Shown here piece by piece: positions 8,642 to 13,092 of a stretch of 64,000 bases of DNA. The stretch is from assembly GCF_003018115.1 (NCBI RefSeq), contig NZ_CP027457.1; one strand, given 5' to 3'. A program made the translations under genes and the position numbers. Under the pieces are notes generated by a model, which saw only the letters and a program-made list of their open reading frames with translations, had not been told where the DNA came from and searched no databases. The stretch's first letter is position 1. The number at the start of each line of letters is the position of its first letter. This DNA comes from Escherichia coli. Its GTDB lineage: Bacteria > Pseudomonadota > Gammaproteobacteria > Enterobacterales > Enterobacteriaceae.

Positions 8642-9337
8642 TTAGCAGTCATCAATAATCAAGTAAGTTGCATGTACTGGTCCATGCACACCAACAACTT
8701 TGATCAGTTCTATATCTGCAGTAGAACTTGGGCCTCCAATCAGATTGATACAGGAAGGCAGTCGTTGTCCTTCCTGAGCCATTTCATGAAGTTTTTGCGC
8801 AAGCTGAGCCACTCGGGGGAGAATAGTGCTTTTGCGTAAAACAAATAATGATGCTTCAGGCAAAAGGCTTACTGAGCGCCCACGTTCTGGTGCGGAGAAT
8901 AAGACAATGCCTCCTGATTCTGTCAGCCCATACTCAGCGAAAACGACACCAGTTTTTGCCTTTTCAGCAAGATGGATATTTTCATCGCCCTTCTCCGGAT
9001 CCCACAGAGCAGCGTCCATTTCTTTTTGTAGCAATGGCGTAATCCCTGTATCGACCAGTCGTTGATCGTTGCTGATAATGACTGGCCCGGAACCGAACTT
9101 CCAACAGATGTCTAAGGCTGTTGATGGTGCGTTCTCAGGCGACACCAGAACACACTCGGCAAGCATCACTTCCGAGGCAAATTTAATAAACGCCTCACAG
9201 CGTTGGTCTGATGTCAACTCTGTTAAACGTGTCGTAGCCAGCGTATTTACAGGCTCCGGCATTGCTTCGGGAATATGTCTTACTGGTCTGCCAAGCTTTC
9301 TGGCGATCGCAACGAGAAATTCCTCTCTGTTTTCCAT
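8642..9337 (-). CDS. ykgG: LutC/YkgG-family lactate utilization protein
   Basis: 231-aa ORF; third gene of a lutA-lutB-lutC-type cluster, sequence consistent with YkgG/LutC. Confidence 0.7.
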   Translation of the reverse strand: MENREEFLVAIARKLGRPVRHIPEAMPEPVNTLATTRLTELTSDQRCEAFIKFASEVMLAECVLVSPENAPSTALDICWKFGSGPVIISNDQRLVDTGITPLLQKEMDAALWDPEKGDENIHLAEKAKTGVVFAEYGLTESGGIVLFSAPERGRSVSLLPEASLFVLRKSTILPRVAQLAQKLHEMAQEGQRLPSCINLIGGPSSTADIELIKVVGVHGPVHATYLIIDDC

Positions 9338-9340
9338 AAA

Positions 9341-10756
9341 TTACCCCTCCTTCTTATGTCGCTTGAACCAACTACGGAAGCTTTCTCCATCAGGTGATGG
9401 CAGGTCTCTGGCTTCAGTCCATTCTTTTATCGCTCCAACACTAATCGGCGTTTTTCCTTTCCTGATGAACAGACGGGCTGTTTTGGCCCCAGCAACCATA
9501 CCTACCTTCCACAACGCCGGATGGCTGTTTATGTAATTGAATGCTCTGGTTATACGGCGTTCCGTTAATGGTGTGATTTCAGACTCTGCCATAACCTGGC
9601 GATGTTTTTGTATTAGCGTTGCCAGAGGTATTTTTACAGGACATACCCCATTGCAGGCAGTGCACAATGAGCAGGCATAGGGTAAATCCTTAAAGTCTTC
9701 ATATCCACCAAGCAATGGGGAAATAACCGCGCCGATTGGCCCCGGGTAGATTGAACCATAACCATGCCCACCAATCTGACGATAAGCCGGGCAGGTATTA
9801 ATGCAGGCACCGCAGCGGATACATCGCAATACATCGCTGAATTCTGAGCCGAGAATCTCTGAACGCCCATTGTCAACAATAACGAGATGGAACTCTTCCG
9901 GACCATCAACATGTCCTTCTTCTCTGGGGCCTGTAAGCCAGGTGTTATAACCTGTCAGTCTCGCCCCGACAGCACTCCTTGCAAGCATGGTAATCAGAAC
10001 ATCCACCTCCTGGAATGTCGGAGCAATACGCTCCATACCCATAACAGCAATATGTGTTTTAGGTAATGTGGTGCACATCCGTGCGTTGCCTTCGTTTGTA
10101 ACAAGGCAGACTGACCCTGTTTCTGCAACGGCAAAGTTACACCCCGTTACGCCAACTTCAGCACTCAGAAAATCTTGTCTGATTTTCTCACGGATGAACA
10201 ATGTCATTGCTTCTGGAGTTTCAGGCCCGTCATACCCCAGATGTTCATGTAAAACTCTGCGGATTTGATGGCGATCTTTATGTATTGCCGGCACAACCAC
10301 ATGCGATGGTGGCTCATGTGCTAGCTGAAGAATATATTCCCCAAGGTCCGTTTCAATCACGGGTATCCCGGCTTTCTGAAGAACGGCATTCATGCCAATT
10401 TCCTCAGTCACCATTGATTTGGATTTAACAACCTTCCTGGCGTTTTTTTCTTTCGCCACCTTCAGTATGTAACTGGTTGCATCCTCTCTGGTACGGGCAA
10501 AATATACATGCCCGCCATTCGCAGTAACCTTTTCGGACAATTGATACAAATAAGCATCAAGATTTTCCAGAACATGCCGACGAATCTGTTCAGCTCGTGA
10601 ACGCCATTCCTCCCAGTGTCCCAGTTCATCAACCATTTTCTGTCGATTAGTCCCTATGCGCTCCTGTGCGTTAGCCACAGCTTTTCGCATGATCGGGTCC
10701 TGAATCTGAATACGGATACGCTCTTTAAACCTGATATCACTTGTTTTCAAAGACAT
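9341..10756 (-). CDS. ykgF: LutB/YkgF-family iron-sulfur lactate utilization protein
   Basis: 471-aa ORF with two CxxCxxCxxxCP ferredoxin-type motifs (CIRCGACINTCPAY, CSLCTACNGVCPVKIP). Confidence 0.8.
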   Translation of the reverse strand: MSLKTSDIRFKERIRIQIQDPIMRKAVANAQERIGTNRQKMVDELGHWEEWRSRAEQIRRHVLENLDAYLYQLSEKVTANGGHVYFARTREDATSYILKVAKEKNARKVVKSKSMVTEEIGMNAVLQKAGIPVIETDLGEYILQLAHEPPSHVVVPAIHKDRHQIRRVLHEHLGYDGPETPEAMTLFIREKIRQDFLSAEVGVTGCNFAVAETGSVCLVTNEGNARMCTTLPKTHIAVMGMERIAPTFQEVDVLITMLARSAVGARLTGYNTWLTGPREEGHVDGPEEFHLVIVDNGRSEILGSEFSDVLRCIRCGACINTCPAYRQIGGHGYGSIYPGPIGAVISPLLGGYEDFKDLPYACSLCTACNGVCPVKIPLATLIQKHRQVMAESEITPLTERRITRAFNYINSHPALWKVGMVAGAKTARLFIRKGKTPISVGAIKEWTEARDLPSPDGESFRSWFKRHKKEG

Positions 10757-11486: not shown

Positions 11487-11535
11487 AGAAATTTCTCCTG
11501 TTGATTAATATTCCACGTCCTTTTGTTGTTTTTTC

Positions 11536-13092
11536 TCAGGCCATGAACAGGTGGTAGACAAGGCCTACTTTCAGTCCAAGAATAACAATATAAGCAAAGC
11601 AGTACTTCAGTGTTCCTGACATGATTACGCTGCCCTGACCATCCATACGGGTGGCTGAAACAGCGATAGCAATACTCTGAGGAGAAATCATTTTGCCGCC
11701 TGTTGCGCCAGATGTATTTGCGGCAGCCAGCCAGAGCGGGTCCACATGCAATTTTTCAGCCGCAGTAGTCTGCAATTTACCAAACAGAATGTTGGAGTTT
11801 GTGTCACTACCAGTAACAAATGTACCAAGAGCGCCGATAACCGGAGCAATGAAGAGGTAGGCCCCACCAGTCAGATCCACAAGGCTCTGTGCCAGAGTGC
11901 CAATCAACCCACAGACATCCATTACCGTTGCCATGGCAACAATCGCAGAAATGGCAATAATGGAGTTTTTAAGTTGTTTTACCGTGCTGACAAATACGTT
12001 TAACAGGCATGACAGGGATGCTTTCTGTATCAAGCCGCCAATAACACTGGCAATGATAATCAGAACACCGGGGGTTGCGATCCATTCAATTTTCATCGAC
12101 AGATTGCTGCCGTTACTCAGAGAGAAGGTGAGTGACGAGGCAATCTGAGACACTGCACTTTTTATCGTCGGGAACAGTGGAGAGCAAAGCAGAATGAACA
12201 GAAAGATCAGAATGTAGATTGAGCACGCACGTAACAACGCCCCACGAGAGTATGAAAGTGCGCTGGCGCTATCTGCTGAACTCTCAATAAGAAATTCAGG
12301 TTCTGTTTTTTCTTTACGGTTTTTTGCCATAAAGACTATAACGATCAGACTGACAAGACTTCCTGCGAAAGCCGGGAGCTCTGCGCCAAGATTAACAGCC
12401 ACCAGATACTGAGGTATCAATGTGCTAATACCGCACATCAGGGTAATTAACCCTACGCCTCGTATAGCTTTCATACCTCCACCGATAATCGTGACGATAA
12501 CGAAGGGGAGCAGAATGTTGAACAGTGCCAGCTGAAGAATAATCGTCCCGCTGAGTGTGGTTACAGGTAAATTAACTTGTTCAGCAAGCACGGAGACAGG
12601 TATACCGACTGCCCCAAACGCTGTAGGGACTGTATTAGCAACCAGTGATGCAATCGCTGCTTTTAGTGGGTTAAAGCCCAGTGCAATGAGTATACCTATG
12701 GGGATTGCTACCGCTGTACCGTATCCGGCGGCCGCCTCAAGAAATCCGCCAAAACACCATGAGATAAGAAGAACCTGGATGCGTTTATCGTCACTAACGC
12801 TCGCCAGAACATTTCTCAGAATATCCATGCTTTTTGTCGCATTCATCAGGTTATAGCTGTAAATGGCAGCAAGGATGACAATCACAATCGGCCACAAACC
12901 TTTGATTGCGCCGTATACCACAGCAGATCCCATATCCATAACTGGCGTCTGCCAGAAAACCCCTCCAAGGATTAGCGTGAGCAGGAGAGTGCTAAGCACA
13001 GAATAGTGTATGGGCATTTTGACTTTCAGAATCAAAATGATCATCGCCAGAAGGGGGGTAAGTCCCAGTAAAAAAAGCAGGTAATCGTGCAT
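11536..13092 (-). CDS. LctP-family L-lactate permease
   Basis: 518-aa polytopic membrane ORF with LctP hallmarks (GFLEAAAGYG, FVTGSDTNSNILF, KMISPQSIAIA); directly upstream of ykgEFG-like genes on the same strand. Confidence 0.75.
   Translation of the reverse strand: MHDYLLFLLGLTPLLAMIILILKVKMPIHYSVLSTLLLTLILGGVFWQTPVMDMGSAVVYGAIKGLWPIVIVILAAIYSYNLMNATKSMDILRNVLASVSDDKRIQVLLISWCFGGFLEAAAGYGTAVAIPIGILIALGFNPLKAAIASLVANTVPTAFGAVGIPVSVLAEQVNLPVTTLSGTIILQLALFNILLPFVIVTIIGGGMKAIRGVGLITLMCGISTLIPQYLVAVNLGAELPAFAGSLVSLIVIVFMAKNRKEKTEPEFLIESSADSASALSYSRGALLRACSIYILIFLFILLCSPLFPTIKSAVSQIASSLTFSLSNGSNLSMKIEWIATPGVLIIIASVIGGLIQKASLSCLLNVFVSTVKQLKNSIIAISAIVAMATVMDVCGLIGTLAQSLVDLTGGAYLFIAPVIGALGTFVTGSDTNSNILFGKLQTTAAEKLHVDPLWLAAANTSGATGGKMISPQSIAIAVSATRMDGQGSVIMSGTLKYCFAYIVILGLKVGLVYHLFMA

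Follow-up and report, generated by a model that had tools for sequence, protein, structure and literature searches.

The pairing of an LctP-family lactate permease with the lactate-oxidising proteins LutA, LutB, and LutC is established in Bacillus, Campylobacter, and Helicobacter, and Bacillus subtilis possesses a dedicated regulator, LutR. Two reports describe such pairings outside the Enterobacterales (PMC4117512, PMC3417520). In Escherichia coli, the related three-subunit system is YkgEFG, for which a respiratory L-lactate dehydrogenase role was reported in strain MP1 using a mutant competition assay (PMC9701030). The ykgEFG mutant of MP1 lost fitness with L-lactate and nitrate under anaerobic conditions and showed no loss with D-lactate; the same study documents host-derived lactate as a nutrient of Enterobacteriaceae in gut inflammation (PMC9701030). 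Here, a four-gene cluster, lctP-lutABC (the module), is described in a stretch of 64,000 nucleotides from E. coli contig NZ_CP027457.1 (the window), in which it is most probably a horizontally acquired and self-contained operon for lactate uptake and respiratory oxidation, extra to the native ykgEFG and carried as cargo of the insertion sequence (IS) family IS66.

Mobile relatives of this module have been reported before. Genes named lutABC and lutP, located by hsdMSR at tRNA-Phe, were reported as unique in uropathogenic E. coli (UPEC) of ST127; they also occur in ST117, ST95, and others, and no functional data were given (PMC9769692). The authors proposed prophage-mediated transfer of the ST127 region and mentioned neither IS66 nor plasmid carriage (PMC9769692). 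The context of the copy in GPEC1352 agrees with that description, i.e., tRNA-Phe, an integrase, a peptide-ABC-transporter fragment, lctP, lutABC, and hsdRSM. An L-lactate permease was also noted among genes of the pheU, pheV, and selC islands of Shiga toxin-producing E. coli (STEC) negative for the locus of enterocyte effacement (PMC6174562), and plasmid pFec10 carries lctP and dld together with a ykgEFG whose YkgE is 94 % identical to the chromosomal protein (PMC7984374). The module, which is annotated in RefSeq and of which a variant is reported in PMC9769692, is thus already known, as an ordinary accessory metabolic operon of a known family.

All coordinates below are positions in the window, and the open reading frames (ORFs) were read off its sequence. 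Four uninterrupted ORFs lie on the minus strand at 8642-13092 and are read in the order lctP, lutA, lutB, lutC (Table 1). The gaps between them are 49 bp (lctP-lutA), 10 bp (lutA-lutB), and 3 bp (lutB-lutC), and a Shine-Dalgarno-like sequence stands before all four start codons, a layout that fits a single predicted transcription unit. In profile searches, LctP matched PF02652 over residues 7-510 (4e-129) and scored 407.5 bits against TIGR00795, above the curated cutoff of 341.15, which places it in the LctP family (TC 2.A.14). LutA matched PF02754 in two stretches (3e-31), corresponding to two CCG domains, and both the CCGQP and the CCGFGG motifs are kept relative to K-12 YkgE. LutB scored 723.6 bits against TIGR00273, the LutB/LldF equivalog for L-lactate oxidation (cutoff 444.8), and was also matched by PF02589 (LUD), PF13183 (4Fe-4S dicluster), and PF11870 (LutB_C), the set expected of a LutB; both of its CxxCxxCxxxCP motifs, CIRCGACINTCP and CSLCTACNGVCP, are conserved against YkgF. 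LutC matched PF02589 (6e-28) and no NCBIfam model, and its gene follows lutB directly, giving the order A-B-C. These matches place the family assignments well above chance. No sequence-related solved structure was found for LctP or LutB. The initial annotation had described a minus-strand cluster of a permease, a CCG-domain protein, a 4Fe-4S protein, and a LutC-like protein, which the ORFs and profile matches bear out; its further claim of a complete lactate uptake and oxidation unit agrees with four intact genes of all the expected families, the function itself being predicted by homology.

The three lut genes are clearly divergent from their native counterparts. LutA is 77 % identical to K-12 YkgE, LutB 83 % to YkgF, and LutC 65 % to YkgG, the last in a full-length, gap-free alignment; LutA is as long as YkgE and LutC as long as YkgG, and the synonymous sites between the window lut genes and K-12 ykgEFG are saturated. 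The K-12 locus sits between rclR and ykgH/betA and has no adjoining permease. LctP itself is only 34 % identical to LldP and 33 % to GlcA, and against the LldP and GlcA equivalogs NF007740 and NF007249, with cutoffs of 918 and 1121, it reached 269.6 and 241.5 bits, outside both. By these comparisons, LctP is a third, distinct carrier or paralogue of the LctP family in E. coli, and as a distinct subfamily it cannot simply be given the substrate range of LldP and GlcA.

The module and the native locus also coexist. In 5426 complete E. coli genomes, a megablast search with the module did not match the native ykgEFG locus, and native ykgEFG (at least 80 % of the query covered) was present in 5163 genomes, i.e., ~95 %. 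The 60 best records of a more sensitive search with lutB include 50 chromosomes, of which 48 gave a second, native-type match, showing that the module is an extra copy and excluding a replacement. The chromosome of E. coli 2014C-4135, which is rearranged relative to K-12, has two lutB-matching places in the same kind of search.

The closest sampled LctP from outside E. coli is that of Serratia sp. PAMC26656 (86 %), followed by those of Pectobacterium, Edwardsiella, Samsonia, and Dickeya (75-79 %). For lctP, lutA, lutB, and lutC, the identities to Serratia sp. PAMC26656 are 86, 87, 91, and 84 %, closer than K-12 for the three lut genes and, when compared with LldP and GlcA, for the permease. 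In both this Serratia and Edwardsiella tarda, lutA, lutB, and lutC come after the permease in the order seen in the window and at comparable spacing, and in E. tarda the operon lies among core genes (epmB/efp, groESL); in Citrobacter braakii, a ykgEFG-type cluster and the permease are divergently oriented. The closeness of all four genes to one co-linear Serratia operon indicates that they were acquired together, as a unit. With respect to the donor, no sampled genome exceeded 86-91 % identity, and none is near enough to name.

Direct evidence for mobilisation by IS66 comes from the IncI-gamma/K1 plasmid NZ_CP024481, which is 99.94 % identical to the window over 7331-13587 (6.3 kb). On this plasmid, the order is a complete IS66-family element, the DUF6882 gene, lutCBA-lctP, and a small IS66 element, in which an intact IS66 is nested, with GAAAAAAT as the duplication of the nested copy. 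These four parts form an 11.8-kb unit (5987-17746 of the stretch examined) with outer ends GTAAGCG...CGCTTAC, bounded by an 8-bp direct repeat, AGTTTTTT. When the two flanks were joined with one copy of AGTTTTTT, the rebuilt empty site was found as one piece, 600 of 600 bases at 100 %, in the six best-matching IncI-type plasmids, and 866 plasmid records match it at a coverage of at least 80 %. The NZ_CP024481 copy therefore has the outer repeats, the 8-bp target-site duplication, and the empty site of an IS66 composite transposon, and the module moved in this form at least once.

The window copy shares the cargo and the inner ends of this transposon and is no longer a complete transposon itself: to its left are the relics at 7331-7589 and 8529-8555, and to its right is a 492-bp internally deleted element. 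The initial annotation had placed the cluster as cargo between IS remnants, and IS66 relics are present on both sides according to RefSeq annotation and a repeat finder. In a 99.9 %-identical record, RefSeq marks transposase fragments at window 7423-7583 and 13466-13912, the second of them assigned to IS66, and the repeat finder identified the IS66 3'-end relics at 7445-7589 and 13774-13919 as direct repeats of 85-92 %. The homology to the E300010, GPEC1352, and pW24-1 variants stops at 8640-8645, just past lutC, and at the opposite end near 13451 (near 13141 for the plasmid variant). In the window variant, IS66-family ends lie at both limits of inter-variant homology. The left IS66 end appears split, with its subterminal part at 7445-7589 and its terminal repeat at 8540-8555 separated by ~950 bp that include the DUF6882 gene, which looks as if it had been inserted inside the terminal palindrome of that end. 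This gene accompanies the module in the window-type variant only and is absent from the other contexts examined. The segment likely entered the island of the window by IS-mediated recombination.

The full module (at least 80 % of the query covered) was found by megablast in 204 of the 5426 complete genomes (3.8 %) and on 64 PLSDB plasmids, 61 of which are predicted to be conjugative and which include pO113 (NC_007365). It occurs in five or more chromosomal island settings, and its contexts comprise a serX island with a contact-dependent inhibition (CDI) system (the window and 2014C-4135), a pheV island where it lies between an integrase and hsdRMS, two other IS-rich islands, an EspP/YadA-type virulence plasmid, and the IncI plasmid NZ_CP024481. 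Identical alleles occur in human, cattle, poultry, and wildlife isolates, on chromosomes as well as conjugative plasmids. At least four allele lineages are present in E. coli, with DNA identities to the window of ~100, 95, 92, and 90 %, and pairwise dS among the variants is 0.25-0.56, far above the usual divergence of the E. coli core, which points either to repeated acquisition or to mobile elements on which old lineages have persisted. The dN/dS of every gene is 0.03-0.11 when the window is compared with three other E. coli variants and with Serratia, a pattern that indicates a long-maintained function, with purifying selection acting on those lineages that E. coli mobile elements carry.

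This distribution would also accommodate a stronger reading, in which the module is an IS66-mobilised fitness cassette or colonisation determinant that shuttles between conjugative plasmids (IncI, pO113-type) and the pathogenicity islands of STEC, avian pathogenic E. coli (APEC), and UPEC. This reading is possible but rather doubtful. If it were true, a permease of its own and escape from LldR control would give carrier strains an extra, differently regulated way of respiring host-derived L-lactate, of use for instance in urine or in a gut that is inflamed or disturbed by antibiotics, and not a redundant metabolism.

Several results weigh against the preferred reading of a working, IS66-borne additional lactate operon. 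The module has no regulator gene, its expression is presumed, and lacking a regulator it must depend on its own promoter and on host factors. A sigma-70 consensus scan of the module region returned weak matches at 13323-13296 and 13462-13435 that are no commoner than in shuffled sequence, and no promoter stood above the shuffles. An LldR/PdhR-type operator, AATTGGTNNNACCAATT, had zero matches with up to 3 mismatches in the whole window. Decay is common: ~650 genomes, ST131 included, keep only a 522-bp fragment of lctP. LctP lies well below the LldP and GlcA equivalog cutoffs, and its substrate range is read from family membership only. No matching target duplication surrounds the window copy, as transposition into the island of the window would have produced. 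Finally, the ykgEFG mutant of MP1 had no defect in mouse colitis models (PMC9701030), so the benefit of an extra copy is not given.

Regulation is the weakest part of the functional model. An alignment of the region upstream of lctP with those of Serratia and Edwardsiella showed conservation only among the E. coli variants and at the ribosome-binding region. At the other end of the operon, the 90-nt region after lutC folds at -27.1 kcal/mol (z = -4.6), and its hairpin has no clean T-run and was not called by an intrinsic-terminator consensus scan.

The lack of a regulator and of a convincing promoter would fit an inert hitchhiker, carried along with IS66 and island DNA, unexpressed or useless in E. 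coli, and decaying. Relics of the module outnumber intact modules about threefold, IS600 interrupts the copy on plasmid NZ_AP042484, and native ykgEFG is itself dispensable in the colitis models (PMC9701030). In ST131 NZ_CP063774, for instance, the lctP fragment (7001-7522 of the stretch examined) is ~91 % identical to window 12293-12814 and is flanked by IS3-family and other transposase pieces in a sat-iha island. However, all four ORFs of the window are intact, dN/dS stays low while dS reaches 0.5 among the E. coli variants, a mark of long-term purifying selection, and identical alleles are spread over hosts and over chromosomes and conjugative plasmids alike. An inert passenger is thus unlikely.

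In the preferred reading of a functional lactate operon, lactate would enter through LctP together with a proton, as with other carriers of the family; LutA, LutB, and LutC would oxidise L-lactate to pyruvate without NAD; and the Fe-S clusters of LutA and LutB would relay the electrons to the respiratory chain. The substrate, its stereospecificity, the electron acceptor, the expression, and the fitness benefit we infer from sequence comparison. A functional operon could also act on another 2-hydroxy acid instead of L-lactate, such as D-lactate, glycolate, or another small carboxylate, since LctP shares only 33-34 % identity with the E. coli carriers that have been characterised and falls under both equivalog cutoffs, the K-12 record assigns both lactate and glycolate to LldP and GlcA, and the lldEFG and lctP genes of H. 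pylori are reported to contribute to the use of both D- and L-lactate (PMC4117512). However, LutB scores 724 bits on TIGR00273, whose cutoff is 445, and E. coli YkgEFG behaved as L-specific (PMC9701030), which makes a different substrate quite improbable.

That the module is nothing but native ykgEFG, or an allele of that locus in a strain background that is less familiar, as the shared three-gene order, domain content, and LutA/LutC lengths might suggest, is refuted by protein identities of 65-83 % with saturated synonymous sites, by IS relics in a serX island in place of rclR and ykgH/betA as flanks, by a module megablast that misses the native locus, and by the native copy standing beside it in 48 of the 50 carrier chromosomes examined. 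Accordingly, what the initial annotation had stated of K-12, namely that ykgEFG has no adjacent permease and lies in a different context, agrees with the K-12 locus, and its proposal of an acquired or paralogous copy is sustained by the identities and by the accessory distribution. The identity comparison that it had called for, with YkgE/F/G on the one hand and LldP and GlcA on the other, gave divergent proteins throughout, and the near-identity to the native locus with conserved flanks that it had named as a refutation was not found.

Table 1. Features of the module and its surroundings in the window.
Feature	Position	Strand	Description
cdiB (ShlB/FhaC family)	5514-7280	-	part of CDI system
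IS66-family 3'-end relic	7331-7589		same orientation as right-hand element; the match to the IncI plasmid begins at 7331
DUF6882 gene	7625-8203	-	PF21813 at 1e-33; passenger, outside the lactate operon
IS66-type terminal inverted-repeat relic (…CCGTATTGACGCTTAC)	8529-8555		86 bp downstream of lutC
Terminator-like hairpin	8588-8620	-	22 nt past the lutC stop; 12-bp stem
lutC (ykgG-like)	8642-9337	-	LUD-domain subunit, 231 aa, intact
lutB (ykgF-like)	9341-10756	-	LUD, two [4Fe-4S] motifs, and LutB_C; 471 aa
lutA (ykgE-like)	10767-11486	-	two CCG cysteine-rich domains, 239 aa
lctP	11536-13092	-	heads the operon; lactate permease of the LctP family, 518 aa
AT-rich region upstream of lctP	13093-13451	-	presumed promoter and leader; nearly identical in window, E300010, and GPEC1352 up to ~13451
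Internally deleted IS66-family element	13452-13943		492 bp; both terminal inverted repeats, GTAAGCGTCAAC...GTTGACGCTTAC
Tyrosine integrase, P4-type	23463-24680	-	ORF, right end of the island; annotated as tyrosine-type recombinase/integrase in near-identical records
serX tRNA 3'-end copy (CCCCCCTCACCGCCA)	24840-24854	+	15 nt; serX terminator follows; candidate att-type right boundary

The window to the left of ~24854 is a mosaic island, probably integrated at serX. The GC content is ~47 % in the module vs. 57-58 % in the neighbouring CDI genes, and this drop, the P4-type integrase, and the copy of the serX 3' end, which was found by BLAST against the K-12 serX region, uphold the earlier placement of the cluster as island cargo. 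ARAGORN found no intact tRNA in the window, which would place serX itself past its left edge. Up to 24915, the window and 2014C-4135 agree over the island at 99.93-99.98 % identity, and the backbone to the right of this point differs, with DUF2726-phoH-efeUOB in the window and ycdU-IS3-dgcT-pgaABCD in 2014C-4135. The same island on differing backbones implies that it has also moved or recombined recently.

Other parts of the island were also noted. A CDI system lies immediately left of the module (1-7280), in which the 3' part of a 9.7-kb cdiA extends past the window start; in 2014C-4135, orphan toxin/immunity pairs come next. At 13945-14443, there is a relic of an autotransporter beta-domain, which matches the 3' end of espP from plasmid pW24-1 at 85 % identity, and it is followed by an intact gene for an SdiA-regulated-domain protein (14514-15344); the region 13945-15344 is further plasmid-like debris beside the module. 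In K-12, the ycdU-serX spacer contains four copies of a ~98-bp sequence with the serX 3' end and the downstream terminator (11960-12580 of the stretch examined), and this array may be a scar of repeated integration and excision. Outside the island, the core backbone at 40000-64000, from the rut genes through wrbA, agp, cbpAM, and torCAD to torS, has a best match of 98.9 % in the 5426 complete genomes, showing that the genome of the window itself is outside this collection, though its island is inside.

A separate question concerned lutC, which RefSeq marks as frameshifted in 2014C-4135 (NZ_CP027310.1). The sole difference from the window is at 8815, where the G5 run of the window is shorter by one G in that record, and ~20 genes are flagged as frameshifted or with an internal stop in another 50-kb stretch of the same record. 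The frameshift call is probably an assembly error, and a dead lutC was rejected on these grounds and because the window copy is intact.

With respect to significance, ~4 % of sequenced E. coli would carry a second lactate-oxidising system with its own transporter, which could modestly shape niche fitness; many of these carriers are pathotype strains of human, cattle, and poultry origin. The composite-transposon evidence provides a concrete route of spread between plasmids and islands and may be a small new detail; a literature search on IS66 with lactate permease returned no paper linking the module to IS66, and one on pO113 with lactate returned nothing relevant. The module opens no long-standing question and will be unsurprising to specialists.

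Compared with known systems, the module is closest in architecture to K-12 YkgEFG, with which it shares the three subunits, their order, the domain content, and the cysteine motifs. However, it belongs to a separate lineage, has its own permease in the operon, is accessory (3.8 % vs. 95 %), and is located on IS66-flanked mobile DNA. The GPEC1352/ST127-type variant has the same four genes at 92 % DNA and 90-98 % protein identity to the window copy, and differs in allele lineage (dS 0.28-0.56), in integration site (pheV vs. serX), and in its flanks. The cluster of pFec10 is likewise a plasmid-borne second lactate-utilisation copy in E. coli; however, it is of the native ykgEFG type and linked to dld, whereas the window copy belongs to the divergent 77-83 % lineage and has no dld. 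Native-type ykgEFG matches were found at 48 plasmid places.

Among the Enterobacterales, the operons of Serratia sp. PAMC26656, E. tarda, Pectobacterium, and Dickeya have the same co-directional order and similar spacing; the Edwardsiella operon lies in core genes, whereas the E. coli module is always flanked by IS elements or located in islands or plasmids. Unlike the system of B. subtilis with LutR, the window module has no regulator gene. More distantly, LutABC/LutP of B. subtilis, LldEFG of Shewanella, Cj0073c-0076c of Campylobacter, and HP0137-0141 of Helicobacter are of this enzyme family too and are likewise paired with an LctP permease, at distant sequence similarity.

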